DNA of 64,000 nt. Source: a virus. The stretch lies in IMG/VR virus record IMGVR_UViG_3300042691_032761, one strand, 5' to 3'. The stretch's first letter is position 1; each line of letters begins with the position of its first letter. Made by a program: the position numbers and the translations under genes. Under the pieces are notes generated by a model. That model worked only from the letters and a program-made list of their open reading frames with translations. It did not search any database and was not told the origin of the DNA. Below are positions 1,019 through 34,920 of this stretch, one piece after another.

Positions 1019-3568
1019 ATGCCAAGACACAATCTTATATCATTACGATCAGGAACAGAAAATCAATGGACTTCTACTAATCCTATTTTATCTAGTGGTG
1101 AACCAGGATTCGAAATAGATACCGGACGTGTCAAGATAGGCAATGGAACAACAGCATGGAGTGGATTGTATTATAATTCTATTATTCCAACAGGATTAAT
1201 TGCTGGAAATAATATCAATATAAATCTAGGAACAAATGGATCTACCGCAACAATAGGGGTTAGTGGATCCGTACAACAGTCAGAGTCTTTGGTAACTAGT
1301 GTTTTTAATGAAACTGGTGCTACTCTTTCCAAGATGACTGCTGTTTATATTAATGGTGGTCACGGAGATTTGCCAACTATCCAAAAGGCTATTGCTACTA
1401 GTGATATTACTAGCGCTGGCACCTATGGACTAGTATATCAAGATATTGATAATATGGAAATTGGTCAAGTTGTAGTTTTTGGATTAATGGGAGGAGTCAA
1501 TACTGATCCTGCTCATGGAGGCATTGCTGGTGCTACAGAGGGCTCTGTGCTATATCTTAGTCCCACAGTTTCAGGTGCTATTACAACTACGAAACCATAT
1601 GCCCCTGACCATATTGTTTCTATTGGTACCGTTGTTAGAGTTCATCAAAATGAGGGTGTTATAGAAGTTAGAGTTCAAAATGGATTTGAATTAGAAGAAC
1701 TACATAATGTTGCGGTTACTGGTGCTACAAATGGTCAGTTCTTGCAATATAATAGCGGTAGTGGATTATGGGTTCCTAGTAGTAGTGGAAACTTTACTTC
1801 ACTAAGCGTTAATAATACTGGAGTTGTAGTTGGTAGCGGTGGCTCTGCTGGGTATTTAAGTAAATTTACAAACTCAAACACTATAGAGAATAGTTCAATA
1901 TATCAAGAATTTTCTAATAAAATTAGAATAGGAGAAAATCAGCAAGGCTATATCGTTGTATCTGATGACTCTTATGGAGGAGAATTAGGAATATTAACTA
2001 ATCTTGATGAAGTTATAGCAATTAAATTCCAAGATGGATCTTTTAGATATGGCGGTGGATATGTTGGTGGAGAAAATATTGTTGTTGCTTCTAATGGGAA
2101 TGTTGGAATAGGAACCGACACGCCTACTGAAAAATTAACTGTTAATGGTAATGGTAATTTTATTGGAAATCTTACTGTTAGTGGCAATCTATCTCCAGGA
2201 TCCATTAGTGGAGTTGATCCTTTATACATACAGACACAAACGGCGAGTATGATCTTAAATGATTATACTATATTCTTACAAAATGATGCTAAGTCGCAAG
2301 GTAATTTTTATCTAGAAGGACCATCAATAGTACAAGATGCTTTGCTAGTAACAGATTCTGATAGAATCGTAACATCATTGTCTTCTCCCTCTTTAACAGA
2401 AATTGGTTATGTTGGCGGCGTTACTAGTAATATACAAACTCAATTAGATAGTAAACAAAATACACTAATAAATCCTATTACTGGTACTGGTGTAGCAAAT
2501 CATATTCCTTACTGGAGTAGCACTAGCGGATTGCTTGCTGATAGTAATCAGTTGGTTTGGGATAGTACTAATAATAGGTTGGGAATAGGAACAGCTAGTC
2601 CGACCAGCACATTACAAGTTAGCGGACTAATAACGGCTAATAGTGGAACATTTGAGTCTATTAATGTTACTGGCCCAGCCGTTTCTAGCGGTTCATTAGT
2701 ATCATTTACGCATCCAGATAATACCGGCTCTTCCGATTATGATGCAATTATTTCTGGACAATTACATCTTACTAGAAATGCAAATAATGGAATATATAAT
2801 TTAGCTACAGAGGCTAGCTGGGACCAAAGTTTAAGCCCATCTGGAACAATATGGAACAATGAAGGCTGGAGCAATCTAGAAAATTTTAAATCTAGAACAT
2901 ATTCTGCTTTATGGAGTGCTGTTGGTGGTCAGCTTGGATACAATCTTCCAGGTGCTGAATTGATAATGAAACACGTTGATACTAATAGATATTGGAAAGT
3001 TAAATTTACTAGCTGGACTCAAGGTGGCGGCGGCGGATTTGCTTATGAAAGACAAGAGATATTTATTGATAATGCTATGAATGTTAGTGGTAGTTCTAAT
3101 TTTAATGATTTATTAACTGCTAATAAGTTATCAGCAAGTGAATTAACTTGTGAAAAATTATCTGTTATTGGAGAAGATTTAACGGTTGGTGGTCAGACAC
3201 CAAGCATAAGCCTAAAAGGATATTCATGGTTTGGTAAAGTCGATGGATCTGTGGGCATAGCAGTTTCAGTTAATAATTCTGGAACATTTGGTAGTTCGTC
3301 AGCTTTTGCTACCTTTGGTGGATTTAATGAAAGCGTAACAGCATATACTCCTATGTGTTTTGCTTCTAATTTTTCGCCACAATTATATCTAAATACTAAT
3401 GGTAATGTTGGTATAAATAAAGCAACCCCATCACAAAAACTTGATGTCAATGGAAATATTAATATTAGTGAAAATTTAATCTTCAATAACAATACATCCT
3501 TGTCAGAATCTGAGTTAACAACTATAATAAATAGTAAAAATATATACATGTGGTCTAATTATATATAG
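1019..3568 (+). CDS. Tail fibre protein with Mtd_N/hyaluronidase-type N-terminal anchor
   Basis: N-terminus LRSGTENQWTSTNPILSSGEPGFEIDTGRVKIGNGTTAWSGL matches the common phage fibre N-terminal motif. Three (N/R)xGIxxxxPxxxLxVxG shaft repeats follow. Confidence 0.8.
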   Translation: MPRHNLISLRSGTENQWTSTNPILSSGEPGFEIDTGRVKIGNGTTAWSGLYYNSIIPTGLIAGNNININLGTNGSTATIGVSGSVQQSESLVTSVFNETGATLSKMTAVYINGGHGDLPTIQKAIATSDITSAGTYGLVYQDIDNMEIGQVVVFGLMGGVNTDPAHGGIAGATEGSVLYLSPTVSGAITTTKPYAPDHIVSIGTVVRVHQNEGVIEVRVQNGFELEELHNVAVTGATNGQFLQYNSGSGLWVPSSSGNFTSLSVNNTGVVVGSGGSAGYLSKFTNSNTIENSSIYQEFSNKIRIGENQQGYIVVSDDSYGGELGILTNLDEVIAIKFQDGSFRYGGGYVGGENIVVASNGNVGIGTDTPTEKLTVNGNGNFIGNLTVSGNLSPGSISGVDPLYIQTQTASMILNDYTIFLQNDAKSQGNFYLEGPSIVQDALLVTDSDRIVTSLSSPSLTEIGYVGGVTSNIQTQLDSKQNTLINPITGTGVANHIPYWSSTSGLLADSNQLVWDSTNNRLGIGTASPTSTLQVSGLITANSGTFESINVTGPAVSSGSLVSFTHPDNTGSSDYDAIISGQLHLTRNANNGIYNLATEASWDQSLSPSGTIWNNEGWSNLENFKSRTYSALWSAVGGQLGYNLPGAELIMKHVDTNRYWKVKFTSWTQGGGGGFAYERQEIFIDNAMNVSGSSNFNDLLTANKLSASELTCEKLSVIGEDLTVGGQTPSISLKGYSWFGKVDGSVGIAVSVNNSGTFGSSSAFATFGGFNESVTAYTPMCFASNFSPQLYLNTNGNVGINKATPSQKLDVNGNINISENLIFNNNTSLSESELTTIINSKNIYMWSNYI

Positions 3569-3576
3569 GAGAAGAT

Positions 3577-3960
3577 ATGGCTACAGCACCAGTTTTTTCA
3601 GTAATTCCAAGAGTTGGTTTAGGACAGGTAAGCACCGCGAATACTAATAGAGATGGTACAGGTACTATAGCTACTATTTTAACTGGTGGCTCATCTGGTA
3701 CAAAAATTACAGAGATTGTTGTTGAGGCAACTGGCACAACGACCGCCGGAATGGTTAGAATATATCTAAATGATGGAACTAATACTAGATTATTTGATGA
3801 ATTTCTTGTCATAGCAGTAACTGCCGGTGCCTCAACTGTTGTTTATAGAGGATCAAGAGTTTATGAAAACTTAACTCTTCCAAATAATTCATGGAGTATA
3901 AGAGCCTCAACTCATAACGCTGAAACATTTAATGTGTTTGTATTAGGTGCTGATTTATGA
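3577..3960 (+). CDS. Small virion structural protein (tail-fibre associated, beta-rich)
   Basis: AGGAG RBS upstream; 127 aa; ATGA overlap with the next gene; fibre-cluster context. Confidence 0.6.
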   Translation: MATAPVFSVIPRVGLGQVSTANTNRDGTGTIATILTGGSSGTKITEIVVEATGTTTAGMVRIYLNDGTNTRLFDEFLVIAVTAGASTVVYRGSRVYENLTLPNNSWSIRASTHNAETFNVFVLGADL

Positions 3961-11390: not shown

Positions 11391-11711
11391 ATGAATCAAG
11401 AACAAATAATATCACAATTAGCAGTTAAAAGATTAGAAACCACAATGATCGGAGCTTTAGCAAGATTCGAAAATGTTTTTGGATATTTATGGGGACATCA
11501 TAAAAATATAGATGAGCCACTATCAGAATCAGAAATACATTTTGATAATATGTGGCAAGATGTTAGGAATAATATTCTTAATCATGGAAATCAGCAAATA
11601 AGAGCAATAACAGATGATATATCCAGAAATCTAAGAAATGGACCGGATGTAAAATTTAATTACAAATTTAAAGTTAAACCGTTAAACAAGGAGAATGACA
11701 ATGCAAACTAG
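11391..11711 (+). CDS. Hypothetical protein
   Basis: 106 aa; AGGA RBS; operon context. Confidence 0.6.
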   Translation: MNQEQIISQLAVKRLETTMIGALARFENVFGYLWGHHKNIDEPLSESEIHFDNMWQDVRNNILNHGNQQIRAITDDISRNLRNGPDVKFNYKFKVKPLNKENDNAN

Positions 11712-12567
11712 ATCTTTTACTGCTAAAGCCAACGATAAGGACTCTGAATTCCTAGTAAAATCCCCTTCTTTAAATGATCAGAGAGAAGCACAAAAGGTTT
11801 ATAACCAAGCCTTTACTGACGCAATAAAGAGTAAGAGTGTTGTAAGAGCAAAGCTAGATGATCTTCTAAGAGATCAAGGATTATGGAATGATGAAAAACA
11901 GGCCGAATACTCCACTATGCAAAAACAACTATTAGATGGAGAAAGACGATTAGCTAAGGGCGGATTTGGTATTAATGAGGCCAAGCAGTTAGCATTTGAG
12001 ATGCAAGAAATTAGAGATAAAATAAAAGACCTTATTAGTGTTAGAACTAGTTTAGATAATCATAGCGCTGAAGGACAGGCAGATAATGCTAGATTTAACT
12101 ACTTAGTATCTGTGTGCGTGGTGTATAAAGATAGTGGAGAAAAATATTTTTCAAGCTTAGAGGATTATCTAAATAAGTCAACAGATCCTGTTGCTATTAG
12201 TGGTGCTCAAAATTTGGCTAATATGATATATGGCTTGGATAATAATTTTGAAAAAAATCTTCCAGAAAACAAATTTTTATGCAAGTATAAGTTTGTTGAT
12301 GAAAAACTAAGAAGAATAGATAAAAAGGGAAGGCTGATAGATGCTGATGGACGCTTAGTAGATGAAAATGGCAGAATAATAGATGAAAATGGTAATTTTA
12401 TAGATAGAGATGGCAACAGAGTAGACGAAACAGGAGAATATGTTGTTGAATCAAAACCATTTTTGGACGAGGAAGGCAACCCAATATTGCCACCAGACGA
12501 AATTAAGCAACCAGAAAAGCCAGTTGCTATTGCCTCTTCACAGCCAGAGACAAAGCAAGACTCTTGA
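11701..12567 (+). CDS. Putative tail assembly chaperone with DxxG heptad repeats
   Basis: AAGGAG RBS favours ATG 11701; last gene before the TMP; repeats IDKKGRL-IDADGRL-VDENGRI-IDENGNF-IDRDGNR-VDETGEY. Confidence 0.55.
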   Translation: MQTRSFTAKANDKDSEFLVKSPSLNDQREAQKVYNQAFTDAIKSKSVVRAKLDDLLRDQGLWNDEKQAEYSTMQKQLLDGERRLAKGGFGINEAKQLAFEMQEIRDKIKDLISVRTSLDNHSAEGQADNARFNYLVSVCVVYKDSGEKYFSSLEDYLNKSTDPVAISGAQNLANMIYGLDNNFEKNLPENKFLCKYKFVDEKLRRIDKKGRLIDADGRLVDENGRIIDENGNFIDRDGNRVDETGEYVVESKPFLDEEGNPILPPDEIKQPEKPVAIASSQPETKQDS

Positions 12568-12652: not shown

Positions 12653-15600
12653 ATGTCAAGATCTTTTAATTTAACAGCAGAATTAAATTTAAGAGGACCA
12701 TCTAATATTCGGCCGATCATTGCTGATATTAGAAGGCAGTTGACTGGTATAACAGCAAATGTTAATGTAACAGTTAATAATACGACTACTCGTAATGTCA
12801 ATAATCTACAACAGTCTGTTACTAGATTAAACACCGCCCTCACCGCAACAAGAGGAACAGCAACAAATGCTACCGCAGCACTAAATGCTTTTGCAAGAGC
12901 AGCGGCAAATGTTAATAATAATATTGGAAATATACCTCGTAATTTAACTAGAATTAATACAGGTGCTGGTGCAACAACTACTACTCTTAATCAAGTTACT
13001 AGAGCCACTCAGCAAGCAACAGTTGGTTTTGAAGACTTTGGTAGACAATCAGCATTGGCTGTTAGACGTTTTGCTGCTTTTGCAACCGTGACTAGCGTAA
13101 TATATAGATTCTCTAATGCGGTTACTTCTGCAACATCAGAATTCATAGATTTTAATAGAGAACTTGTTAGAGTTGCACAAGTTACTGATTCTAGTTTGTC
13201 AGAACTTAGACCACTAGTCTCTCAGATCACTAATTTGTCTACTAGCTTAGGCGTAGCATCTAAAGATTTGATTCAAGTTTCTAGTACATTAGCACAGGCT
13301 GGTTTAAGTGCAAGAGACACAGAAAAAGCTCTTAGGGCTCTTGCTCTTAGTGCGTTAGCCCCGTCGTTTGATAGCCTAAGCGATACAGTAGAAGGATCTA
13401 TTGCTTTAATGAGACAGTTCGGCATTAGTGCAGGAGATTTAGAGGATGCATTGGGTAGTGTAAATTCTGTTGCTGCAAAGTTCGCAGTTGAAGCAAGCGA
13501 CTTAATTACTGCTATTCAGCGTACCGGCGGTGTGTTTGCAACAGCAAGTAAAGGTGTTAGCGAGGGCAAGGATGCTCTTAATGAGTTTTTAGCTGTATTT
13601 ACAAGTATTCGTGCTACTACTCGTGAAAGCGCAGAAACTATTGCTACAGGCTTAAGAACTATTTTTACTCGTATTCAAAGAGCGGATACTATTGATGCAT
13701 TAAAAGCATTCGGAGTTACTCTTACTGATCTAGAAGGTAAATTCGTTGGTCCATATGAAGCTGTAAGGAGACTAAGCGAAGGATTAAGCAGACTCGATCC
13801 TAGAGATTTAAGATTTTCTCAAATTGTTGAAGAACTTGGCGGTTTTCGACAGATTGGTAAAGTGATTCCACTTATTCAGCAGTTTGCCACAGCACAAGCA
13901 GCGCTAAAGGTTGCTCAACAAGGACAAGGATCATTAGCAAAAGACGCATCAACTGCACAACAAAGTTTAGCAAATCAAATTGCTAAAGTACGAGAAGAAT
14001 TTACTGCTCTTATAAGATCATTAGGAGAAAGTTCCACATTTCAAACATTCGTTAGATTAAGTTTGGATCTTGCTAGCGCATTAATTAGATTGGCTGATAG
14101 TGCTAAAACTGTATTACCAGCATTAACTGCTATTGCTGCATTTAGGGGCGTCTCCGCTCTTACAAGGTTTGGTGCTGGATTTGCTGGTGGACTAAGAAGA
14201 CAAAATAATGGAGGTCCAGTAAGAGGATTTGCTAGGGGAGGAATAGTTCCAGGGGTAGGCAGCGGAGACACTGTTCCAGCTATGTTAGAAGCTGGAGAAT
14301 TTGTAATTAGAAAAAAAGCAGTAGAAAAAATTGGAGCTGGTAATTTACATAAAATAAATAAATATGCCACTGGAGGTAAGGTCAAAGATCTTTTATTAGA
14401 TAAGCCACTACTAAAAGCTAAATATGATACATCTAATATTGAGGATCTATATAGTTTTATAAGGATAGATAGGAGCAAACAAAATAAATTATCACAAAGT
14501 AGAGAAAAATATAGAGATAAAGCAGAACAAATATGGAGTCAAGCATCTTCTGCTTACTCTTCTAAGGGATCTCTTTCTGGTGCTAATACTTTAATAAGAA
14601 GAAAAACTGGAATAAATCTTCCATCTAAATTAAGTAGTAAAGATTTAAATCCAAATAATAAAGATAGTCAAAGACTAAATAAAATTCAAGGATCATTGGC
14701 AGAAAAAGAAGTCTATAATAAAATGGGTAATCTAAAACAATTACCAACAAAAGCTGGTGCTGACTTTACAATTGGTGGATCCGCAATCAACTTTGTTGAA
14801 GTTAAAAATAGACTAGAACCAACATCAGATAATGATTTAAGAGGAAAAGCATTACTAGGTCATCAATACCTTAGTGGAAAACAATATCTTAATAATAAGT
14901 TAGATAAAACTCCTAGACTAACTATTTCTTTATTTTCTAGCAATGAAGGAGATTATAAGAAAAAAAACTTTGGAGGATTAATTCAAAAATTTGCTCTCGG
15001 AGGAAAAGGAAGAGCATTAGGAGCACGAAGTAAATTTAAAGAATTAGACGCAAGCGAATTAGATAAACTTAGTACAGCTGATTTAATTAAGTATGCAAAA
15101 AGACAGGCTCGTGATATTTTTAGTACAGGCGGGGCTGGGATGGCGATGCGTAGCAGATTTATTGAAACCCCAGCAAATAAAATAATTCCAGAATTAGAGC
15201 CTCATTTAACATCATATATGGGGAAAAAAGGATTTTGGAGAGAAGAGATTGCCCCCTTTGGAAGACCATCAAAACAACAAGCAGCGAAAGCATCAAAAAC
15301 AGGAAGAGAAGCAGCTCTTAAAAAACAAGAAGCAAGACAAGCAGACGAAGTTGCGGCCAGAGCACAACAGTGGAAATTAATACGATCAGGATCTAAAATA
15401 GATTCTTATTTACTGTCTTCTTTAAAAGATCCTATTTTATCTGACTACAAGTCAGCCAAAGCTGGGCAGCCGCTAGCAAAAGCTTTTCATGATACTAGAT
15501 TAAGACAAGCTGTTAATCAAGCATTAGATAATTATGATGATTTTGATTATTCTCCAGCAAAGATCGATAAACTAGTTAGTGGAATGGCATCAAAAAGATT

Positions 15601-18600
15601 TGCAATAGGAGGATCTGTAGAAGATAAAGTTCCGGCACTATTAACTCCTGGTGAATTTGTAATTAATAAAAAAGCTGCTAGCAGAATAGGAGCTAGTAGA
15701 CTACATCAATTAAATAGAGCAGATAGAATTAAAGGATTTAATAAGGGCGGAGCTGTTGGAGGAATTCAGAAACTTGCTGCCGGCGGCTTTCCAACGGCTT
15801 TAACACCAGCTATGAGTGGACTATCCGCAAAAGAAACGGCTAGATTAAGTTCTGCTATAATGAATAATGTTGATGCTTTTAATACTTTGGAGGCTCAAGT
15901 TTCTGCTCTTCCAACAGATCAAATGTTGAAAGCTATGAGAATATTTGCCTCTAAACTTGAGGGAGGAGCAACAGATATAGACCGAGCGGCTACAGAAGCG
16001 GCAACATTGGCTCAATCTGGCGGTGGAGGAAGTAGACAGTCTAAAAAAGCAAGAGTAGCAAATTCTGGAGTTACGGTTGGGCCAGCGAATCCAACAACCG
16101 GAATAGTAGAAACAAGACCGACAACTAATCCTGCTGTTAGCGGTTTTGCTGCAAGTCAAGCTAGAATAAATCAAATATCTGCAAACGTTGGACAATATCA
16201 GGCTGGTCAAGATGTTGTTAGTCGTAGAGATACTGTATTAGGTGGTACTACTTCAGGAAATCTATCAAACGCTGGAATGCAACGACTTGCTCAACTAAAC
16301 CAAACAGGAGGAGGATTTGCTCAAAGAGGTCAAGATTATGCTCAAAGAGCACAGGTCTCATCTCAAAAAACTTATTCTGCAAGTTCTTTTGATCCAACAC
16401 AAATTTATCAAGGATTGGCTAAATTAAATCAGGGAATTGCAACAGCAGCTAATGGTTTAACTAGCTTAACTACAGCATCTAAAACTGCTGGTAGTGGTAT
16501 AATGTCTTTAGGCAAAGGAGCATTAGGAGCAGTTGGACGAGGAGCAGGAGGATTAGTTAGTAAAATTGGAGGAGGAGCTTTAAATATGGTGGGACTTGGA
16601 GGATTAGCTTCCAAAGGAGCAGGAGCAGCAATGGGTGGTGGTGGCGGTGGTGGAATGATGGGCATGGTGGCTATGATGGCAGCAGGGCCATTATTGGAAG
16701 CTGCAAGTCAGTCAATGGGAGGAGAAAAAACAGAAGCTGGAAGAAATACTACTGCTGTTGGTGGCGCTATGATGAATTATGCTGCTATTGGAGCAACACT
16801 AGGAAGTGTTATTCCTGGAGTTGGAACCGCTTTGGGAGGAGTTGTTGGAGCAGCGGCTGGTCTTGTTGTGGGTCTTCAGGATGCCACAAAAGCTAATGAA
16901 GAATATGCACAGAGTCAAAGAGAAGCAAAGGCCGCAACAGCATCAGATAAGAGTGGAAAAGCACTAGAAGCATACATGGCCAAACCTGGAGCTGCTCAAA
17001 AACAAGCTTTCATGAGTTCATTTGCTGCCACATCAGAAGCAGAAGCAGCCGTAAAAGCAGGAACAAAAAGACAAACAGCTAGTAGTTTTGGAAAAATGTT
17101 AGGATACCAAGATGAAAATATAAATGATTTTGCAGCAAGAACGGCTAAAACACAAACAGCAGGAGCCGATCAAGCCAAGCAATTTTTAACTGCTGAGATG
17201 ATGAGAACCGGTAAAAATTTTGGTGAAATTAGTAAAACTATGAGTCCAGAACAGTTTAAAACTCTAGCGACTAATATTGCAGAAGCAGATGAAACATATG
17301 CTTATTTCCAGATCCAAAGAGCTAATGAAATTAAAAAACTTAGAGATAGTGGTCGAGGAGCAGAGGCAGATGCTTTACAAGCACAGACCAATGCTGAACA
17401 AGAAAATTTAGCTAAAAATATTGCTGAACGTCAATTAGCAGAAGCATCAGCGGCCGCTCAGGCCAAAGCAGCATCAGAAGCTTCTAAAAAGCTAAATATG
17501 GTAATGATGCAAGCTGTTATGAGTCTTGAAAAATCATTTAATACAATGGAAGAGGTATTAAATAGATCAAGTTTTGAACTTGGACAAATATCTGGCAAAG
17601 CAGATGAAATTTTCAGTGGCAAAGCATCATTAACTAGCTCTACTTTTGCACAAACAAATAATGTTCTTCAAAATCCAAATGCTTACTCTGCGAAAGAAAG
17701 ACAAAATGCTATAAATAGTTCTGCCGCCAGAATGGGACCAGCCGGGGCATTAGTTGGTCGAGTAGCCACATTTGGTGCTCAAGCAACAGAAGAGGCTTCT
17801 AGAAGGGCTAATGCTGTGTTCAATGGTGGAGGAGATAACGAAGCTGTTGGTAATGAGGTTACTAGAAGTTTAACAAATAATATTCTTGCCACGTTTGGTC
17901 CAAATAGTTCCATGTCCCAAACCCTGATTGATGGTGTTAAACGAAGCGTAGACGAGGCAGTAAAAACAGCAAAAGAAAATGGAGAAACGCTCGATCCAAA
18001 TGAATTGGTAGAAAAAGCCACAGGACCACTAAATAGAGCTGCTCAACAAGCGGGTCAATTGTTAATTAAAAATAATGAGAATGTTGCTAAACACTTAGAA
18101 GAGTTGGGTAAGGTTGCTGAAAGAGTAGTAGAAATAGAAAATAGAAGAGTAGAAAGAACAGCAGCATTGGTAGAAATGCAAGCTCAGGGAGGAATATCAA
18201 CCAAAGAAGCACTAGGACAAAAAGTTTCTTTAGACGAAAGAATGAGCGCAAGATTTGCAGGAAGTAGAGCGAGATTAGGAATACAGGACCAAGCTAATTT
18301 TACTCCTCAAAATATTGCCAATATGAGATCTCAAGCTCAAAGAGAGCAAGCTGCATTACAATCACAAATAGATAGAAGATCAAAAGATGTTGGATCAGAC
18401 CCAACTGGCAGAGCAGCGAGAGAGGTTGCTAATTTACAACTAAAACTTGCTAAGGTAAATTCCACAATAGAACAAACTAATAAAGAATTAGAAGATTTAC
18501 CAGGAGCATTAGAAGGAGCTATTAGTGATGTAACATCAGAGATTCAAAATAGAGTAGCAAAATTAGATGCTCAAAAACAAGCATCAGGAGCTTTTGCTGA

Positions 18601-21600
18601 AAAATTAGTAGGAAGCACTCCACAGGAATTGGCTGAATTAGGTAGAACATTTAATTTATTAGATTCTACTCTTAGAGGACAAATAACAACAGTGCAGCAA
18701 TCACAAGTTGCTCAACAAGCATATATTCAATCTATACAAGAAGGAAAAACAGCACAAGAAGCAATGACTGATGCTCAAGCAGCATTTGCTAATGAAAATA
18801 AAAAAGCATTAAGCTTATTTGGAGAATTGACTCAGATCGCCGGAATAGAAGGCCCAGAACTTGACTTAATGAAAGCAGATTTATTAGAAAATTTTGCAAA
18901 AGCACAAGGAGCAGGACTAGAAAATAATCCATTCTTCCAAAGATTGTTAGGAATACTTAGACAAGATCCTGCTCAAAGAGCACAAAACGATCCAGTCTTA
19001 AAAGCTTTACAAGCAAGAATGACAGAACTAAGAGAGCAGCAAGTAGAAGCTGTAAGACTACAAAACGAAGCTGATAGAGGTATTCAAAAACAACTATTAG
19101 AACAAGTTGGTCAAAATATTATAACAAGTTTGGAAGCTACGCAAAGAGCATTTGTTGCAGCAATGAACGATATAGCAATGAGAATGGGAGCGGCTCCTCC
19201 TAGACCAATGCCAGCCAGACCTCGTTCTACCGGAGGATTAATATACGCATCAAATGGACAATATGTTAATTTTCAACCAAAAGGAACAGACACAGTTCCT
19301 GCTATGTTAACTCCGGGCGAATTTGTGGTTAATGCTAAATCCACAAAGGAAAATTTAGGTTTATTAATGTCTATAAATAATAGTCGCGGAGGCAGAATAA
19401 GTTATCTTGCTGATGGCGGAATGTCTGATATTTCCGGAGTCTCATCAAGAACTCAGTCTGCAAAACAAGAAGATATGGCCAGAAGTGGATTAATTAACCA
19501 AAGAGCACTAAGTAATAAAATTGATACCGTTAAAAGCTTATCTAATAATATTAATTCTACCACATCATTTACTAAAGATAATCAAATTCCATCATTAGAT
19601 GGATCAATAGATAACAATCAATCAATTAATAATAAACAATTTAAATCATTATTAATTGGAGTAGATAAAATTTCCAAAGTTATAGAGAATAAGAGTTCTA
19701 AGGGATTATCTAGAGGAGGAGTCGTTTATGCCAGCAGCGGAGGATACATAGGCAACGGCACTCCCGCTATGCTTTCGCCGGGAGAGTTTGTGGTCAACCA
19801 AGCTTCTGCTAAAAAATATGGTGGAGTTTTACAAGCTATAAATAGACAAGATGGTGGAGGCACACCATTTAGCGTTCCTGTATTAGATATGACTAAAGAT
19901 AATAAAGATGGTGTTTTTGTCAGAAGTCGTTACAGAGGACCGAGAGATAAGTTTATGTCCGCTAGAGAAGCAGCATCCGCTGGCATACCGTATAGCACTG
20001 GCACAGGATTTAATACAACTTATTTTGGAAAAAATACAGGAATTACTAAGGCAGACTTTGATGCTTTAACTAAACAAGACGAAAAAGATTTTTCTATATT
20101 CAATCATCCAACATTGGTTTCTCAAGGAAGACAAGCAGCTTTTACTGCTGGCTTGGCAGAAGGAGTGCCGGTCGGTGTCGCTTCATCAACAGCCGGAACC
20201 GCAGCAGCCGCTGGAACAGGAGTTGCGGCTACGGCACTAGGAGTAACAGCACCAGCATGGCTACCAGTGGCTTTAGCAATAACTGCTGCGATTGGAGCAG
20301 GATATGCTATGTCAAAATTGGCAAGAGCAACTTCTAATAAAGCTCTTGCAGCAGGAGGCAGTAATGTTACGATGGATATGATGCAGGAAGATTATCCGTT
20401 ATCTTTTATGGCTGGATCAACACTTGGAGACGCAATTGGTGGAGTAGGCGGGTCTAAATTAGGCTCACAAGCGTTCTCTGGAACATTATCTAAACAACAA
20501 GAGAAATTATTAAGACTAAAAACTATAAAAGAACGTAAAGAAGTTAACGCTGCGATATCTGAATTTAGAGAAAGAGTTGTAGCAAGATGGGAGGATATGT
20601 CTGAATTGGAAGCCTCAGCAATTTCTAGAATGTCAGGGCGTAAAACAGATTTAACTGGTCAAGAAATAATTGATTCAGCTACAGCAAGATTAAAATTATT
20701 AAATCCAAAAGCTAATCCAGATGACTATCTTCCAATAGATTTAGACACAAGGGTTATTAAGGATCCTTTTGGTGATGGTACTATTGGATGGCACAGAAGG
20801 AAAGGTAGAAAAGGAACACCAGAAATACGAACAACAGATCCTCAAGATTTAACTGTTTTACCTCATGAAGCTATTCATGCTATGATTGGAGAAAATCCTC
20901 AAATCCGTGATCTAACGATGGATTTCATCATCAAACATGAAGATTTAATTCAAGAATGGTTATCTAAAACAAAAATGACTGGATATAATTTAGATACTAT
21001 GAAATATGGGACTTCATACAGAATGAGGCAACTTGAGACGAAAATTAATTATACAGATATTCCATCGGTAATTGAAACAGAAAAACTTTTTGCTAGAGCT
21101 TTAAGCGGTAAAGAAACTGCTTCATTAGATTTTATACAAAACACAAAAGGTGGATTAGAATATATTGATAGATTATTAAAACAACAGTCTTCCAGAAGTT
21201 TTTTCACAGATGAGTCAGAAATAATAAAATGGGTTGATAAAAAATGGGATAGATCTAGTTTAGATTCCCTCAAAAAAACCATAGATGATTTTAGAAATAG
21301 AGATAAAAAACTTTATGAAGATATAATGACACATATGGGACCTGGAGGGTATCCCGGAGTTGGAACAAAAAGACTTCCAAAAGATTTGTTAGAATCTTTG
21401 AACGAAATATTTTCTCCACATGCCTCCAGAGCTGGGCCAGAAGAATTTTTAGCAACATTAGCTCAAGATGATTTAACAGGAAATGCTGCTGGTCAACAGT
21501 TGCAAAGACTCGTACAAAGAGAAATATTTGAAAAAGCCGATCAAATAAAATATAAATTTATGGGCTTTCCTGAACGACCCATTGTTGGAGTACCAGAAGG

Positions 21601-23434
21601 ATTAGAAGGATTTAATAATGGTGGTATGGTATATGCTTCAGAAGGCAAATACATAAATTTCAAACCAAAGGGCACGGACACTGTTCCCGCGATGCTAACT
21701 CCAGGAGAGTTTGTTGTTAATGCTAAAGCCACTAAAGATAATTTATCGACATTGCAAGCTATTAATACTGGATACTATGAAAGAGGTGGAATTGCTGGTG
21801 TTGATCCTAGTCCAAGTAATTTTGCAAGAAGTATTGTTGGCATGAGAGGAGCCAGAATTAACCAATTAGCACAACAGGGTAAATATTATGTTTATGAGGG
21901 TAATACAGCAATATTAGATGATGATAATGGTAGATTTCCTAATAGATATGCGTCTGTTAGCGGAGCCAGAAATATACAAGAAGCAATTGAGCTTGCTAAA
22001 CAGAAATATGAATGGTTCGAAGGAGGCGGATATTCCCTTAAAGAAGCCTCTGCGATTGAAAGAGGACGTATGGGTTCGACAACATTGGCAGATAAAATAA
22101 TAGACGAATTACAAGATCAGATAATTGAGGGTGGTCCAAGATTATTTACCTCAACAGGATTTAATCAAAAAAATAAACAAGATAAAATTAATGAAATTAT
22201 AAAAAAAATAGATGAACAAGGCGCAAATCCTCAAGAATTATATAGGAAAGCCACCAAAAGACAAAATTATTTAAGACAAGTTGAAAATAATACTAGACTT
22301 GGTCTTAATGTAATAGCAGGATCTGATAGAACAATAAATCTCGGAGGAAGAAGAGAACTATTAGCAACAAAGCTTCTAGAATTACAAAGAGATTATGCTC
22401 AAAAAGAATTAAGTCTTATACCTAGAGTTTGGGATGATATAGCCACAATGAAAGGATATCAAGGCTTACCAAGAGATTACACAACATCTTTTAATGCTCT
22501 TAATCCTAGTAGTCTTCCTGGTCCTGAATATTTTAGTTCTGGCGGCATGTCAATGCCTAAAAAATTTGATAAAACAACCGATCCGGCAGATCGTATTTTG
22601 CAAAGAGCTAATGAAGCAAGATTAAACAACTTTTCGAATATATACGAGTCCCTTTTAGTGAAAAAATATGGAAAATCTATCAAGCCATTTCGTAATACTG
22701 ATGTTTTAGAAAATCTAAGACAATATCAAGAATTTGATTCTCTTTCTGATGAAGAACTAAGAAGTCTAGAAACACAACATATACAATCAAAAATAAATAA
22801 ACAATCAAGATTAAATAAATTCAACTCAGGAGGAATAGTATACGCAAACAAAGGAACTTTAGTTCCTTATCAGCCCAAAGGCACAGATACTGTTCCAGCA
22901 ATGTTAACTCCAGGAGAGTTTGTAATAAATAGACAAGCATCTCAAAAACATCTTGGATTATTACAATCTATCAACAATGGTAACTATTCAAGAGGAGGTC
23001 CTGTTTACCTTGCCGAAGGAACACAAGGAACACAAGCGTTTGATGCTAACATGACCTATTTATCGGATATCTTGAAAAAAGGAGCAGATACTCTAAATAC
23101 AGCATTTATAGAAGCTGTTAGAAAATTAAATAATATTGCTGATAATTCTCCTCAAATAAGACAGGGTACATCAAACGGTGTATCTAATAATCAGAGCAAT
23201 CCTTTGGCTAATATAGAAGCATTGGGCAATAGATTAGACCAGTTTATAGAACAACTAAAAAATGCGGTGCCTTCAACAGTAACTCTAGAGGTTCCAACAG
23301 CTATTCCAGTTAATGTTAATATAAATGGAGCAAGCATTCTTAAAGATGTTCTTGGTGGACCAATAGGAAATATCGTACAAAAAGCTATCAAAGATGCATT
23401 TGATGCAAAAAGTAGACAAAATGAAGGGTATTAA
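12653..23434 (+). CDS. Tape measure protein (TP901-family core) with multiple inserted domains
   Basis: The N-terminal ~500 aa have a TP901-type TMP core (DFNRELVRVAQVT...LAQAG...VAAKFAVEASDL...IATGLRTIF), with long Ala/Gln-rich helical regions. Six PAMLxxGEFV repeats; canonical position after the tail tube and chaperone genes. Confidence 0.88.
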   Translation: MSRSFNLTAELNLRGPSNIRPIIADIRRQLTGITANVNVTVNNTTTRNVNNLQQSVTRLNTALTATRGTATNATAALNAFARAAANVNNNIGNIPRNLTRINTGAGATTTTLNQVTRATQQATVGFEDFGRQSALAVRRFAAFATVTSVIYRFSNAVTSATSEFIDFNRELVRVAQVTDSSLSELRPLVSQITNLSTSLGVASKDLIQVSSTLAQAGLSARDTEKALRALALSALAPSFDSLSDTVEGSIALMRQFGISAGDLEDALGSVNSVAAKFAVEASDLITAIQRTGGVFATASKGVSEGKDALNEFLAVFTSIRATTRESAETIATGLRTIFTRIQRADTIDALKAFGVTLTDLEGKFVGPYEAVRRLSEGLSRLDPRDLRFSQIVEELGGFRQIGKVIPLIQQFATAQAALKVAQQGQGSLAKDASTAQQSLANQIAKVREEFTALIRSLGESSTFQTFVRLSLDLASALIRLADSAKTVLPALTAIAAFRGVSALTRFGAGFAGGLRRQNNGGPVRGFARGGIVPGVGSGDTVPAMLEAGEFVIRKKAVEKIGAGNLHKINKYATGGKVKDLLLDKPLLKAKYDTSNIEDLYSFIRIDRSKQNKLSQSREKYRDKAEQIWSQASSAYSSKGSLSGANTLIRRKTGINLPSKLSSKDLNPNNKDSQRLNKIQGSLAEKEVYNKMGNLKQLPTKAGADFTIGGSAINFVEVKNRLEPTSDNDLRGKALLGHQYLSGKQYLNNKLDKTPRLTISLFSSNEGDYKKKNFGGLIQKFALGGKGRALGARSKFKELDASELDKLSTADLIKYAKRQARDIFSTGGAGMAMRSRFIETPANKIIPELEPHLTSYMGKKGFWREEIAPFGRPSKQQAAKASKTGREAALKKQEARQADEVAARAQQWKLIRSGSKIDSYLLSSLKDPILSDYKSAKAGQPLAKAFHDTRLRQAVNQALDNYDDFDYSPAKIDKLVSGMASKRFAIGGSVEDKVPALLTPGEFVINKKAASRIGASRLHQLNRADRIKGFNKGGAVGGIQKLAAGGFPTALTPAMSGLSAKETARLSSAIMNNVDAFNTLEAQVSALPTDQMLKAMRIFASKLEGGATDIDRAATEAATLAQSGGGGSRQSKKARVANSGVTVGPANPTTGIVETRPTTNPAVSGFAASQARINQISANVGQYQAGQDVVSRRDTVLGGTTSGNLSNAGMQRLAQLNQTGGGFAQRGQDYAQRAQVSSQKTYSASSFDPTQIYQGLAKLNQGIATAANGLTSLTTASKTAGSGIMSLGKGALGAVGRGAGGLVSKIGGGALNMVGLGGLASKGAGAAMGGGGGGGMMGMVAMMAAGPLLEAASQSMGGEKTEAGRNTTAVGGAMMNYAAIGATLGSVIPGVGTALGGVVGAAAGLVVGLQDATKANEEYAQSQREAKAATASDKSGKALEAYMAKPGAAQKQAFMSSFAATSEAEAAVKAGTKRQTASSFGKMLGYQDENINDFAARTAKTQTAGADQAKQFLTAEMMRTGKNFGEISKTMSPEQFKTLATNIAEADETYAYFQIQRANEIKKLRDSGRGAEADALQAQTNAEQENLAKNIAERQLAEASAAAQAKAASEASKKLNMVMMQAVMSLEKSFNTMEEVLNRSSFELGQISGKADEIFSGKASLTSSTFAQTNNVLQNPNAYSAKERQNAINSSAARMGPAGALVGRVATFGAQATEEASRRANAVFNGGGDNEAVGNEVTRSLTNNILATFGPNSSMSQTLIDGVKRSVDEAVKTAKENGETLDPNELVEKATGPLNRAAQQAGQLLIKNNENVAKHLEELGKVAERVVEIENRRVERTAALVEMQAQGGISTKEALGQKVSLDERMSARFAGSRARLGIQDQANFTPQNIANMRSQAQREQAALQSQIDRRSKDVGSDPTGRAAREVANLQLKLAKVNSTIEQTNKELEDLPGALEGAISDVTSEIQNRVAKLDAQKQASGAFAEKLVGSTPQELAELGRTFNLLDSTLRGQITTVQQSQVAQQAYIQSIQEGKTAQEAMTDAQAAFANENKKALSLFGELTQIAGIEGPELDLMKADLLENFAKAQGAGLENNPFFQRLLGILRQDPAQRAQNDPVLKALQARMTELREQQVEAVRLQNEADRGIQKQLLEQVGQNIITSLEATQRAFVAAMNDIAMRMGAAPPRPMPARPRSTGGLIYASNGQYVNFQPKGTDTVPAMLTPGEFVVNAKSTKENLGLLMSINNSRGGRISYLADGGMSDISGVSSRTQSAKQEDMARSGLINQRALSNKIDTVKSLSNNINSTTSFTKDNQIPSLDGSIDNNQSINNKQFKSLLIGVDKISKVIENKSSKGLSRGGVVYASSGGYIGNGTPAMLSPGEFVVNQASAKKYGGVLQAINRQDGGGTPFSVPVLDMTKDNKDGVFVRSRYRGPRDKFMSAREAASAGIPYSTGTGFNTTYFGKNTGITKADFDALTKQDEKDFSIFNHPTLVSQGRQAAFTAGLAEGVPVGVASSTAGTAAAAGTGVAATALGVTAPAWLPVALAITAAIGAGYAMSKLARATSNKALAAGGSNVTMDMMQEDYPLSFMAGSTLGDAIGGVGGSKLGSQAFSGTLSKQQEKLLRLKTIKERKEVNAAISEFRERVVARWEDMSELEASAISRMSGRKTDLTGQEIIDSATARLKLLNPKANPDDYLPIDLDTRVIKDPFGDGTIGWHRRKGRKGTPEIRTTDPQDLTVLPHEAIHAMIGENPQIRDLTMDFIIKHEDLIQEWLSKTKMTGYNLDTMKYGTSYRMRQLETKINYTDIPSVIETEKLFARALSGKETASLDFIQNTKGGLEYIDRLLKQQSSRSFFTDESEIIKWVDKKWDRSSLDSLKKTIDDFRNRDKKLYEDIMTHMGPGGYPGVGTKRLPKDLLESLNEIFSPHASRAGPEEFLATLAQDDLTGNAAGQQLQRLVQREIFEKADQIKYKFMGFPERPIVGVPEGLEGFNNGGMVYASEGKYINFKPKGTDTVPAMLTPGEFVVNAKATKDNLSTLQAINTGYYERGGIAGVDPSPSNFARSIVGMRGARINQLAQQGKYYVYEGNTAILDDDNGRFPNRYASVSGARNIQEAIELAKQKYEWFEGGGYSLKEASAIERGRMGSTTLADKIIDELQDQIIEGGPRLFTSTGFNQKNKQDKINEIIKKIDEQGANPQELYRKATKRQNYLRQVENNTRLGLNVIAGSDRTINLGGRRELLATKLLELQRDYAQKELSLIPRVWDDIATMKGYQGLPRDYTTSFNALNPSSLPGPEYFSSGGMSMPKKFDKTTDPADRILQRANEARLNNFSNIYESLLVKKYGKSIKPFRNTDVLENLRQYQEFDSLSDEELRSLETQHIQSKINKQSRLNKFNSGGIVYANKGTLVPYQPKGTDTVPAMLTPGEFVINRQASQKHLGLLQSINNGNYSRGGPVYLAEGTQGTQAFDANMTYLSDILKKGADTLNTAFIEAVRKLNNIADNSPQIRQGTSNGVSNNQSNPLANIEALGNRLDQFIEQLKNAVPSTVTLEVPTAIPVNVNINGASILKDVLGGPIGNIVQKAIKDAFDAKSRQNEGY
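14228..23010 (+). repeat. Six dispersed copies of the (D)TVPAMLTPGEFVVN module within the TMP
   Basis: Copies begin near 14267, 15623, 19289, 19757, 21677 and 22886. They are conserved at protein level with many synonymous differences. Confidence 0.9.
23177..23191 (+). promoter_or_regulatory. Candidate late-promoter motif GGTGTAT
   Basis: GGTGTATCTAATAAT lies in the TMP 3' end, 260 nt before the next gene, and closely resembles GGTGTATTCAATAAT at 5661. Confidence 0.4.
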
Positions 23435-32300: not shown

Positions 32301-34919
32301 GAAAATATATCTAAAATTTATGTAAAAGCTAAAGTAGAAAAAGAATTTGCAAAATATATTGGGGCAGATGGAAATATTTATACTAAAATTATAATGTCGT
32401 TAAATAATCCTGTGTTCCTCAATGCCCTAACACCCGACACCTTATCTGTAACAAATGCTGTGGCTGAGTATTTTATTTCCGATTATACTGGAGCGTCATT
32501 AGTAACAGCAATACGAGCCTTGGGAAATTCTTTATTTATTAAACCAACGCCACTAGAAACCTCAGTAACTGCAAAAAATGCTGCTAGTCAAAATAAAGCA
32601 AATAAACAATTTAATAACTTATCTATACATCCAAAAGCAGCGATGCCGTTTTTCGCTGGCGTACCAATTGTGGACAATACCTCCGTTTACGGACCTTGGG
32701 TATCTGCTCCAGATTTATTGAAAGATGTTATCTTTCCAAGTGATGCTGGAACTCTTCAAATTAAAAAAATAGAAAATTTAATAGGTGGAGCAAAAGTAGA
32801 AATTGAATCTGATTTTGTTCCATGGAATTATGGCGGAATGAGAATATTAGACGAGGTGGCTTTATTAAAAGTTGGACAGGATAATGATTATTTACAAAAA
32901 TTAGAGTCCGGATCTTTAACTATTCATGGAGTCCCATTTATTAATTTGGGCAATGAATTAAAAACTGCTGGAAATTTGTTTAGAGGACCAACAGTCAGCA
33001 ATATACAGTGCCAAATTAGCGAAAGCGGACCTTCCACAACCTACACATTCAGAACATTCACAAAAAAATTCACATTGTTCAATAAAGAAAATTCTGACAG
33101 AATCAAACAGGCTGCTCAGGCTACACAAAAAATGTCTAGGGAGTTTAGAAAAGAATTTAATGCAGTTTCTGAGATACTAAGAACAATCGCCACCTCGCCA
33201 ACTGTTAATAGCTCTCCAAGTTTTGGTGCTGATTCTATCTTAAGATCATATAGTCCTGTTGATGTTTTGGTTGGATATTCTGCTCCTTTCTGGAGTAGAA
33301 AGGCCGAGCCAGCTAATCTTATGGGATTTTTTCCAAATCCATTAAAAACAACAAATCAATGGTCTGGCAATTCTATAAAACAGATGACCACTGTTAATAT
33401 ACAGGAAAGAAGAGAAGTAGTTCAAGAATTTGAACAACTATATAGTACCAAGTCTTTTATGAGTATGGATGGATTATTACACCCAGTTTCTTTTTATCCA
33501 ACGATGCTATCTTCTACTACTCCATATAAGCCATATTTGACCACATCTGATGGTAAAATTTCAGGATGTCCAATATGCAGAGGAACAAAAACTTATATAT
33601 GGGAAGATAAAACTTTCTATTGCGATTATTGCTCAAATGTCTCTGCTGGACAAGAACCAAATTCTTCAACATCAAACGGAAGATTACCTCCATATATATT
33701 ATCAAACCAAGCAGATGAAGATATAATTAAGGATCCACAAGCTTTAGAAAAACTATTACAATCGACGGTAATGTCAAAAAAAATTGATTATGTAAATTTA
33801 AATCCAATTATAATGCCCGTTGGCGAACTTAGAAATAAATTTGCTCAGTCTAATGATTATACCTCTCATCACATAGACATAGTCGGAAGAAGTGTTGTTC
33901 CTCCTGTAGGATCTCTATCTATAAATTCTAACTTGAATATTGATCAACAACCAATGGTAGATCCTCTTACTGGAGAACTAACAGGATTAGAATATTTTGA
34001 TCAAAATAGAATGGTTTCTGATGGAGATTGGAATTCTGTGGCTTTTGATATGGCTGACGGTAGAGTAGCTAAAAGTGCAAATTCAGTACAAGTTGGAGGA
34101 AAATCTTATGAATATTTTCAAAATAATCATAGATTCTTAGCCTTAAGGGGCCCTCTTGTTATGGCTGGTTGGGGATATGATGTTGATGGAATGCCAGTGC
34201 CAAATGCTTCTGGGGAACCAAAAGAATTAAATGCTGGAGGATACCCAAAACGCATAAGAGACAAAAAAGATCAGACAGGTGGTTTTCAAGATTATGCAGG
34301 AACGATATTAGGTAAAAATCAAACATGGGATAATGATAAAGAAGAATGGACTGATCCAATTAAAGAAAGTGAATTTTATAAAGGCTGGGGATTAAGACCA
34401 GATAGCTGGCCTGTTGGTCCAGTAGACTTAAGATGGGATGAAAATAGAAAAGTTTGGACAGCAGCCCAACCATACAAATTAGTAGATGTTCAATTAGAAG
34501 ATGATTTGGTACCGCCATTTCCTGCTAGAGCATTTTTTAATTCTATGGATAAAACCTCGCCATTACCAAATAATTTAAGACGCATGATATTTGTAAGAGA
34601 TTCTACAGAGAGCTATGGGGCTCCAAGAGGAGCAAAAATAACATGCTATTATGATGAGGCTTCTGGATTTTATGAGCCAATATCAAAACAAAATATAGTA
34701 GCGATGGGCACCATAAGTAGTAATGGAACCGCTAAGATTTTGAATGCTTATGCCAAAGGATTTGATCCTATTACTGGAGAACCAGAAACTCCGGAACAAA
34801 TTACGGTAGAATTTAATAACTATCTTAACTTTGATATCAGTCAAAGTAATCAAGCAGGAATATTTACGTTTATAAAAAATGAATGGATTTTAACAAGTAG
34901 CAATACTTGTGGAGGATAA
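29322..34919 (+). CDS. Large tail tip / baseplate hub-like protein
   Basis: 1865 aa. N-terminal FLGGSVKAFNASLAWG...FYGIVKGWQR resembles hub beta-barrels; internal CPIC...CDYC zinc finger; post-TMP position. Confidence 0.55.
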   Translation: MVCSTILNIPGKQGGDTKTYNICCTKVYSQTLFLGGSVKAFNASLAWGSEASKLTVEISVDKCDYPVQKDLNGNIVLVMPEANSYTVNRLNNTFQKDENGNSLIPAKVYYKPYYDTTKKSGYLASYYWTGSDPGFYGEIFDAYGNVDVAKSVDIVGCAVYFKYDDFEFYGIVKGWQRQGGSSGTITYSIDIESPSFLLTQTQMILSDYNGAIFSKTNGSDGSQFTKFGFPKTNAGTYTGAISEQNIPNLINVFGYLEDSAAITSATPAYRYGRSERNDQGISALYIMQGIYDLLNSTKPVTSNKQKILRYSPYGRIVGKAPKFKSSLNDVFVSLNDLEQKPYSFGLLKPSFYTKYTDQNLDLYVMPYSINFNDILNNGIIPSYYRISDQKMDLLQFFTTVAENTGQNIFISMELDITEEGTFPVIKINSISKLINSPDGIVQEFIDDIVSKGVSVTSYSKGEELNNNDPIRTMVVGGKQQRLYQVSNLKYALKQSTLRYSAYVNKFVKIDHFNALAGSESQQRYRLFDPVNIRNPDLYRSQDKTPALPFGRVELYSAAFKEKKSLLGGYVQNKGNYLPEISFVKNELDPTKRQSKKGGWVYDSYIYDAICPYFGNDELTGYVRPVFQHYNNMINDISASSISADGNGGGVGFLVGFTLAEIGAAIGVNYSQANFRVRISETEIRAAMSGYDAYVAFLTGMLEDGVVLNCFNSVEKPNFPVDIWKHVLGPIIMPVKVAAGAASYDSFSSPFLKGLVSGLTRDFNVAATTGVSGKDGNASVALAAQSSVATDPRLYDILVKLHGFFKNIGDTYYGKQYMINVPSPQVWTDVQYFKDTQGNNLQIPIGVDSNNKPIYLLSGSKKTYYSFEPTDFAWEEPGNYIDDCLMVGNAILDPLTKDDGSIEPILGFNNTTQYNYGRELAGKLYAFTYSLSANAQAINLWKWDMARAYGLTYSGTEQMWEPALSLKDSGAVVVPHPLGSNNPSFDPYGTKILDENISKIYVKAKVEKEFAKYIGADGNIYTKIIMSLNNPVFLNALTPDTLSVTNAVAEYFISDYTGASLVTAIRALGNSLFIKPTPLETSVTAKNAASQNKANKQFNNLSIHPKAAMPFFAGVPIVDNTSVYGPWVSAPDLLKDVIFPSDAGTLQIKKIENLIGGAKVEIESDFVPWNYGGMRILDEVALLKVGQDNDYLQKLESGSLTIHGVPFINLGNELKTAGNLFRGPTVSNIQCQISESGPSTTYTFRTFTKKFTLFNKENSDRIKQAAQATQKMSREFRKEFNAVSEILRTIATSPTVNSSPSFGADSILRSYSPVDVLVGYSAPFWSRKAEPANLMGFFPNPLKTTNQWSGNSIKQMTTVNIQERREVVQEFEQLYSTKSFMSMDGLLHPVSFYPTMLSSTTPYKPYLTTSDGKISGCPICRGTKTYIWEDKTFYCDYCSNVSAGQEPNSSTSNGRLPPYILSNQADEDIIKDPQALEKLLQSTVMSKKIDYVNLNPIIMPVGELRNKFAQSNDYTSHHIDIVGRSVVPPVGSLSINSNLNIDQQPMVDPLTGELTGLEYFDQNRMVSDGDWNSVAFDMADGRVAKSANSVQVGGKSYEYFQNNHRFLALRGPLVMAGWGYDVDGMPVPNASGEPKELNAGGYPKRIRDKKDQTGGFQDYAGTILGKNQTWDNDKEEWTDPIKESEFYKGWGLRPDSWPVGPVDLRWDENRKVWTAAQPYKLVDVQLEDDLVPPFPARAFFNSMDKTSPLPNNLRRMIFVRDSTESYGAPRGAKITCYYDEASGFYEPISKQNIVAMGTISSNGTAKILNAYAKGFDPITGEPETPEQITVEFNNYLNFDISQSNQAGIFTFIKNEWILTSSNTCGG

Positions 34920-34920
34920 A

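Follow-up and report, generated by a model that had tools for sequence, protein, structure and literature searches.

A giant phage tape measure protein whose variable inserts are exchanged at a repeated gpH-type module

Why should a phage tape measure protein (TMP), whose length sets the length of the tail, repeat one short motif six times with unrelated sequence between the copies? The question is raised by a single gene in the IMG/VR virus record IMGVR_UViG_3300042691_032761, of which a stretch of 64,000 nucleotides (the window) was analysed. The open reading frame (ORF) at 12653..23434 on the plus strand encodes a Cys-free TMP of 3,593 aa, and an initial annotation of the locus pictured it as a cassette polyprotein that delivers effectors. 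The protein is a TP901-family tail TMP, as that annotation had it: aa 191-394 match PF10145 (PhageMin_Tail; E 1.9e-22, 80.5 bits against a gathering cut-off of 33.2), PHROG tape-measure families match the N-terminal third, and no tape-measure model of NCBIfam matched. Comparison with relatives answers the first part of the question. This is a chassis-plus-cassette TMP in which a module resembling part of lambda gpH marks every exchange boundary; the chassis and the modules persist in the relatives, whereas inserts are substituted, gained or missing, and the edges of the modules are where homology stops.

The chassis consists of a TP901-type N-terminal core, a middle region of about 1,150 aa with a hydrophobic segment, and a C-terminus of about 140 aa. 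The modules (M1 to M6) fence two insert regions, slot 1 (blocks A and B) and a C-proximal series (block C, block D, and blocks E plus F). The parts are as follows; modules without further comment were delimited by pattern and alignment.

12653..23434, plus strand: TMP gene, 3,593 aa, no Cys
12653..14212, plus strand: N-terminal TP901-type core, aa 1-520, PF10145, present in all 120 listed relatives
14213..14398, plus strand: module M1, aa 521-582
14399..15019, plus strand: block A, aa 583-789, PD-(D/E)xK-like domain, with catalytic-type residues at nt 14702-14806
15020..15577, plus strand: block B, aa 790-975, fold unassigned, in 10 of the 120 listed relatives
15578..15787, plus strand: module M2, aa 976-1045
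15788..19222, plus strand: conserved middle region, aa 1046-2190, recognised from composition and relatives
19223..19417, plus strand: module M3, aa 2191-2255
19418..19687, plus strand: block C, aa 2256-2345, low-complexity, common to the closest relatives only
19688..19867, plus strand: module M4, aa 2346-2405, the most divergent of the six copies
19868..21607, plus strand: block D, aa 2406-2985, an orphan insertion
21608..21802, plus strand: module M5, aa 2986-3050, counterpart of the fourth module of relative P0002
21803..22537, plus strand: block E, aa 3051-3295, predicted to fold as an alpha/beta domain with a helical hairpin
22538..22822, plus strand: block F, aa 3296-3390, beginning with a half-joint YFSSGG, low-confidence helices
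22823..23017, plus strand: module M6, aa 3391-3455
23018..23431, plus strand: conserved C-terminal region, aa 3456-3593, recognised from relatives

Evidence for exchange comes from the four closest relatives (P0002-P0005, core 85-92% identical), which are collinear with this protein over aa 1-583, 984-2409 and 2986-3593. In these relatives aa 584-983, which carry blocks A and B, are replaced by 375-709 aa of unrelated sequence, and aa 2410-2985 (block D) are an insertion relative to all four and begin and end within modules. P0002 has one fourth module, to which both M4 and M5 can be aligned, and none of the 120 listed relatives has the insertion made up of block D and one module. The pattern that the initial annotation had anticipated, a conserved core and conserved repeats around blocks that vary, is thus found, and the outcome that was to refute it, relatives with identical and collinear blocks, is not. 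The slot 1 blocks also occur in other arrangements: block A stands alone between two modules in P0072, P0006 has block B without A, immediately behind M1, and the two are combined in P0022. Of the 120 listed relatives, 7 have block A, 10 block B, 5 block C, 5 block E and 1 block F; block D is missing from all of them.

Substitution rates add a time scale to these exchanges. Between this protein and P0072, block A has a ratio of nonsynonymous to synonymous divergence (dN/dS) of 0.28 and a dS of 0.56, and the cores of the same pair have a dS of 1.49. The much lower dS of block A argues that the cassette moved between lineages after they had split, and the low ratio indicates that block A is under purifying selection. 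Block F plus the C-terminus, compared with P0002, has a dS about half that of the core, and block C has a dN/dS of 0.13 against the same relative.

The module that bounds these exchanges occurs exactly six times under the pattern P[AG][ML]L..GEFV, with the Pro at aa 542, 994, 2216, 2371, 3012 and 3415, so the six copies first reported at about aa 539 to 3412 are all real, and the six blocks lie where they had been placed. The six modules align across about 65 aa with 13 invariant columns (GG ... PA.L..GEFV ... L...N ... GG). At the DNA level the copies diverge at synonymous sites, with a mean column identity of 58% and only short exact words in common, which argues that they are old copies maintained by selection on the protein rather than recent duplications. 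Collected from 121 proteins of the family, 543 module copies give the consensus GG.vYAs.G......P.GTDTVPAMLTPGEFVVN..AT..NL.LL..IN; in the 17-mer core, GTDTVPAMLTPGEFVVN, 14 of the 17 positions are about 90% or more conserved, 98% of the copies have a GG at most 32 aa upstream, and nearly every module has GG before and after it. The module is the most conserved element of this giant-TMP family.

No Pfam or NCBIfam model matches the module, and its wider relationships emerged from profile searches. A profile of the six copies matched gp16 of phage Douge twice (E 1e-4) and lambda gpH 733-785 at E 0.15, and a profile of 44 copies from eight relatives found lambda gpH 733-785 at E 0.0018 as its sole PDB match. 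These matches are weak but consistent, and they indicate that the module is homologous to that part of gpH. In tblastn searches 33 records of cultured phages, from many hosts, also showed the module in a gene annotated as tape measure, once per record at the threshold used. Its strong conservation, together with a homologue in single-module TMPs, argues that the module has a function of its own. The suggestion that it is an amplified linker for cargo therefore holds in part: it does mark the sites of block gain, loss and replacement, but the most conserved element of the family is not merely a linker. A motif found once is hard to interpret, and its recurrence at every domain boundary through 543 copies suggests a boundary function. 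The module is most likely a docking or processing signal, and by analogy a maturation cut of the lambda type at the module is plausible.

How general the plan is can be seen from a whole-length search, which returned 1,657 metagenomic proteins of 1,976-6,288 aa on contigs of up to 230 kb; the relatives compared throughout are the best 120 of these (121 proteins with the query). They share an order of N-terminal core, module, variable slot, module, a middle of about 1,100 aa, further modules and slots, and C-terminus. Between four and eight modules are present in 102 of the 121 proteins, and in 101 of them one inter-module interval measures 915-1,256 aa (median 1,101) and corresponds to the conserved middle. 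Every one of the 120 listed relatives has the N-terminal core (73-92% identical in the best twelve); 112 have the second half of the middle, and 39 have the C-terminus. In the protein studied here part of the middle is rich in Gly and Ala and contains a hydrophobic segment (aa 1383-1409, nt 16799-16879), and aa 1501-2190 read as helical, judging from their Ala/Gln/Glu-rich sequence.

The inserts differ from these ruler-like parts in composition. Blocks A, B, E and F, and D2 within block D, contain 27-32% Lys, Arg, Asp and Glu (KRDE) and 7-8.6% Phe, Trp and Tyr (FWY), against 15-24% and 3.6-5.6% in the core and middle. The description of the blocks as charged and globular-looking is accordingly apt for these five and fails for block C, a low-complexity sequence with 22% KRDE and 2.2% FWY. 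Two further trends run through the family. The zinc-peptidase-type motif HExxH occurs 30 times in the 121 proteins against 0.4 times expected from composition, an approximately 75-fold excess spread over 25 proteins and at least six sequence clusters. Its context is typical of zincins (e.g. vaHEAGHhlq, vdHELGHvlq), and its relative position is mostly 0.7-0.94, chiefly in C-proximal variable slots (relatives P0026-P0118). Cys, in turn, is nearly absent: 37 residues in 482,866, and none in 102 of the 121 proteins, variable inserts included; neighbouring proteins of the window contain 0-8.5% Cys. Together, the near-absence of Cys and the excess of HExxH suggest a shared physical constraint, such as unfolded passage or an oxidising compartment, and a recurrent enzymatic theme. 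An embedded HExxH protease was also considered as a universal processing enzyme of the family and was rejected, since the motif occurs in only those 25 proteins. In P0031, P0052, P0078 and P0084 the source annotation or precomputed Pfam lists give 'glutaredoxin 2' in one and EF-hand in three, and these listings are the few recognisable domains among the family's inserts.

Which inserts look like functional domains? Block A is one. Six aligned sequences of 42-77% identity share invariant E684, D704 and E716-x-K718. An AlphaFold2 model built from the same six-sequence alignment (predicted local distance difference test, pLDDT, 75.9; predicted template modelling score, pTM, 0.72) has the order alpha-beta-beta-beta-alpha-beta, with helix 90-109, strands 112-114, 123-126 and 131-136, helix 144-159 and strand 175-180. 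In this model E684 sits on a helix, D704 before the second strand and the ExK pair in the third, so that the invariant residues would occupy the catalytic positions of a PD-(D/E)xK enzyme and the fold appears nuclease-like. Searches for block A in a PDB profile library, in Pfam at E up to 10 and in a protein atlas returned no informative match. Blocks A and B were sought in viral contigs and A in metagenome contigs, with pattern matches only and no relatives. A VIA search gave Z 4.6 to SEN15, which is not significant. Between blocks A and B, aa 770-786 (14960-15010), NFGGLIQKFALGG, resemble a decayed joint, and NFGGLIQKFALGG also terminates block A in three of the five aligned relatives (L002, L005 and L003).

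Block D carries the second enzyme motif, so that the claim of at least two such blocks stands: HEAIH at aa 2738-2742 (nt 20864-20878) is the sole HExxH in a protein with 15 His. A hydrophobic segment spans aa 2523-2553 (nt 20219-20311) of the same block; a protein-language-model search of D2 pointed weakly to LPD23, which is a domain of polyvalent proteins. The possibility that block D is an intein or homing element was rejected, since the Cys/Ser-His-Asn junctions are lacking in a protein without Cys; so was the possibility that the blocks are paralogues of other genes in the window, where no match was better than E 0.1. In a model of aa 2986-3593, block E is folded (pLDDT 70-88) as an alpha/beta domain with a helical hairpin, and it is 33-41% identical to its counterparts in five relatives. 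The blocks had been expected to model as folded domains rather than extended helices, which is borne out for A and E at least; block F models poorly. Opposite block F, the locus of the closest relative, P0002 (L006), shows internal tandem repeats (FVPFRS..ADKEA..KRAAYDAE) together with a half-joint, GGVVYAxxG, which lacks the GEFV part. No toxin, anti-defence or host-modifying Pfam domain was found in any block, nor in two relatives scanned whole, and Pfam matched none of the inserts of those two relatives to a family.

The explanation that we lean towards, and hold to be somewhat probable, is that the inserts are protein domains kept by selection rather than spacer, that they travel in the tail as part of the TMP, and that they leave the tail on ejection of the TMP, which precedes the DNA. 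Those in C-proximal positions would be the first to emerge and would most probably have the cell envelope as their target; block D, which is one of them and has both a hydrophobic segment and HExxH, would then be a peptidase resembling zincins. Inserts in slot 1 would exit last, beside the DNA end, and block A would be a PD-(D/E)xK nuclease-like domain in that position. The module would be an active element needed at every domain boundary, a docking or processing signal that possibly corresponds to the lambda-type maturation cut site. It is thus probable that the tail has a variable payload, part of it enzyme-like. Should the inserts be delivered in active form, long tails would give phages a protein-delivery route whose payload can be exchanged, and a large uncultured lineage of more than 1,600 proteins would hold hundreds of unknown domain families evolved inside TMPs.

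Several observations weigh against the reading of the inserts as delivered domains or soften the evidence for it. The internal ends of long alignments (40 queries) fall inside module spans in 54% of cases against 14% expected, a test that is partly circular because a conserved element beside variable sequence ends alignments by construction. Block E compared with P0003 has a dN/dS of about 0.6 with dS near saturation, and fold searches with it gave no significant match. Only one of the five models of block A was confident, and its best Foldseek matches in PDB and BFVD, at E 0.2-5, are not significant, although proteins with a restriction-endonuclease fold recur among the weak rows from both libraries (Hjc, VRR-NUC, PA and hantavirus endonucleases, a Cas4-like protein, a restriction endonuclease, DUF559 and RecU). 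Exhaustive phmmer with block D found no homologues among 1.84 billion representatives, and its HExxH therefore cannot be checked for conservation. The modules, block F and the C-terminus have pLDDT 25-45 in the model of the C-proximal part. The blocks matched no enzyme family in Pfam (single blocks gave chance-level rows at E up to 10), NCBIfam or PHROGs, and in the precomputed Pfam lists 113 of the 120 relatives show no family beyond PF10145. Stand-alone homologues of block A were searched for and not found, nor was a shorter stand-alone homologue of the HExxH block of one relative, so there is no sign of capture from free-living enzyme genes; with the missing Pfam matches, the inserts look like private sequence space evolved inside TMPs. 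Finally, the lumen of the tail tube would leave little room for three or six copies of folded domains that measure 200-600 aa.

The strongest competitor, which we regard as possible though doubtful, is that the inserts only tune tail length: they would be ruler material in which sequence matters little, each module-bounded block would change the length of the tail to match, e.g., the thickness of an envelope or sheath, and the modules would be register or assembly elements that contact a chaperone or the tube. The dependence of tail length on TMP length is its foundation, and family lengths of 2,211-6,200 aa, the lack of insert domains known to databases, the missing homologues of block D, the low-complexity or helical look of blocks C and F, and the simple tandem repeats of P0002 at the position of block F all suit it. 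It is kept alive by the cultured Nodularia phage vB_NpeS-2AV2, whose TMP, of 3,404 aa and with two modules, goes with a tail of 795 nm (PMC6293099). Mere ruler material would hardly be expected, on the other hand, to show the dN/dS of 0.28, invariant E..D..ExK and compact alpha/beta model of block A, a block E that is predicted to fold, an HExxH enriched about 75-fold in typical zincin context, or an insert composition unlike that of the ruler parts.

A bolder form of the delivery reading, in our view unlikely, takes the module as a cleavage signal, used by self-processing or by one protease, at which the TMP is cut at six joints into a pore-forming ruler and its cargo. This cargo, in which a nuclease-like domain and a membrane-anchored zincin would be joined by folds of unknown kind, would be released in fixed order into the envelope and cytoplasm before the DNA, phages would reshuffle it by recombination at the joints, and the module signal would explain the long-unexplained lambda gpH -> gpH* cut.

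Slightly less likely again is a true polyprotein as first proposed, in which the modules are cleavage signals that yield about seven polypeptides, and the freed inserts are cytoplasmic effectors of anti-defence or takeover acting before phage gene expression. The sole functional landmark near the lambda homologue is indeed a cut, of gpH into gpH* and gpHC in the Gly-rich region just upstream of 733-785 (PMC12617516), and M6 plus the C-terminus mirrors gpHC. The GG pairs before and after nearly every module are candidate sites only; the nuclease-like character of block A and the weak LPD23 lead for D2 would also fit. No protease was identified, however, and the inserts are without known anti-defence, toxin or takeover domains. 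Furthermore, most HExxH inserts are C-proximal and should be the first to leave, which would place them in the envelope and not in the cytoplasm. For phage P23-45, the virion RNA polymerase is proposed to be active while associated with the TMP pore, with no cleavage reported (PMC10770324). An artefact, whether a chimeric assembly, mis-joined repeats or foreign DNA joined at modules as block D, is hardly credible even though block D is unique to this record and flanked by repeats, because the little DNA identity among the modules leaves exact words too short to collapse an assembly, the frame stays open over 3,593 codons in DNA of about 36% G+C, block D keeps the Cys-free composition of the family, and more than 1,600 independent metagenomic proteins share the plan.

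Parts of the arrangement have precedents in known systems. T5 pb2, the TMP of mycobacteriophage TM4 and SPbeta YomI carry cell-wall hydrolase domains, inside or at the end, that act on the envelope during ejection. Those hydrolases belong to known families (M23, transglycosylase, Rpf), whereas the inserts described here match none; YomI itself is a distant match of the TMP core (22-26% identity). The direct precedent for an enzyme brought into the host before phage gene expression is gp96 of Thermus phage P23-45, a giant TMP of 5,002 aa fused to the working virion RNA polymerase (PMC10770324); there the enzyme is one fusion at the N-terminus, and neither repeated joint modules nor swapping of cassettes have been reported. 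Sle1-type effectors of actinobacterial contractile injection systems likewise use a TMP-derived carrier with exchangeable, diverse domains (PMC13277306, PMC11126660), but the machine is bacterial, each protein has one functional domain, and no repeated gpH-type module is present as far as reported. Polyvalent proteins, as summarised in a later paper (Iyer et al. 2017, cited in PMC7824862), are also very large multidomain proteins delivered with DNA; by that account they are arrays of recognisable enzyme domains, usually packaged in the head, whereas none was detected here and the carrier is a TMP.

The module itself invites comparison with three phages. Lambda gpH is cut to gpH* in a Gly-rich C-proximal region by a protease that, like the exact site, is unknown, and gpH 733-785 lies just downstream of that region, in an N-terminal part of gpHC that no structure resolves, with no assigned function (PMC12617516). 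M6 and the C-terminus of the present protein follow the gpHC order of module and then C-terminus; gpH differs in having one copy and no inserts, against six copies that fence about 1,400 aa of variable sequence here. The TMP of mycobacteriophage Douge, gp16 (PDB 8zdo), has two internal copies, at 964-1027 and 1410-1458, in a protein of only 1,699 aa; they are neither described nor interpreted in PMC13033339, and no cassette exchange is shown there. In vB_NpeS-2AV2 (KU230356.1, L012:8983-19197) the 3,404-aa TMP has its two modules in tandem at aa ~1011 and ~1086, and the tail of 795 nm (PMC6293099 Table 1) corresponds to about 2.3 Angstrom per residue. Comparing the copies of a repeated module offers a way into the old question of the site and mechanism of the lambda gpH cut, and into the role of the conserved C-proximal TMP motif.

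TMP-fused enzymes, both hydrolases and the P23-45 polymerase (PMC10770324), and modular effectors derived from TMPs (PMC13277306) have already been published. No description of a repeated gpH-type module, or of cassette exchange at that module, was found in the literature. The present analysis contributes dS values that point to cassette transfer, a block D without homologues, the excess of HExxH and the depletion of Cys.

The surroundings of the gene are those of a tail locus. Directly upstream lie two ORFs of 106 and 290 aa (11391-11711 and 11695-12567) with a 17-nt overlap, a chaperone-sized pair in the position of the G/GT tail assembly chaperones, and downstream follow large proteins of 924, 430, 586, 1,865 and 2,233 aa. 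The gene order around the TMP gene, the chaperone-sized pair included, is identical in L007, the contig of relative P0003; 14 flanking genes are collinear over their full length with that contig, at 60-93% identity and near-equal sizes. A Pfam search with ten neighbour proteins gave no matches, and megablast of the TMP gene against cultured phages gave none either. The best cultured relatives of the TMP core, which are SPbeta-like, are only 22-26% identical, and the G+C content of the window is 29-41%. The source is a large uncultured tailed phage, probably a siphophage, and the window looks like part of a very divergent phage genome. Farther downstream, the proteins encoded at 34909-41610 (2,233 aa) and 41588-43249 (553 aa) contain 3.8% and 8.5% Cys, against none in the TMP, and they may be fibre or receptor-binding proteins stabilised by disulfides or metal.

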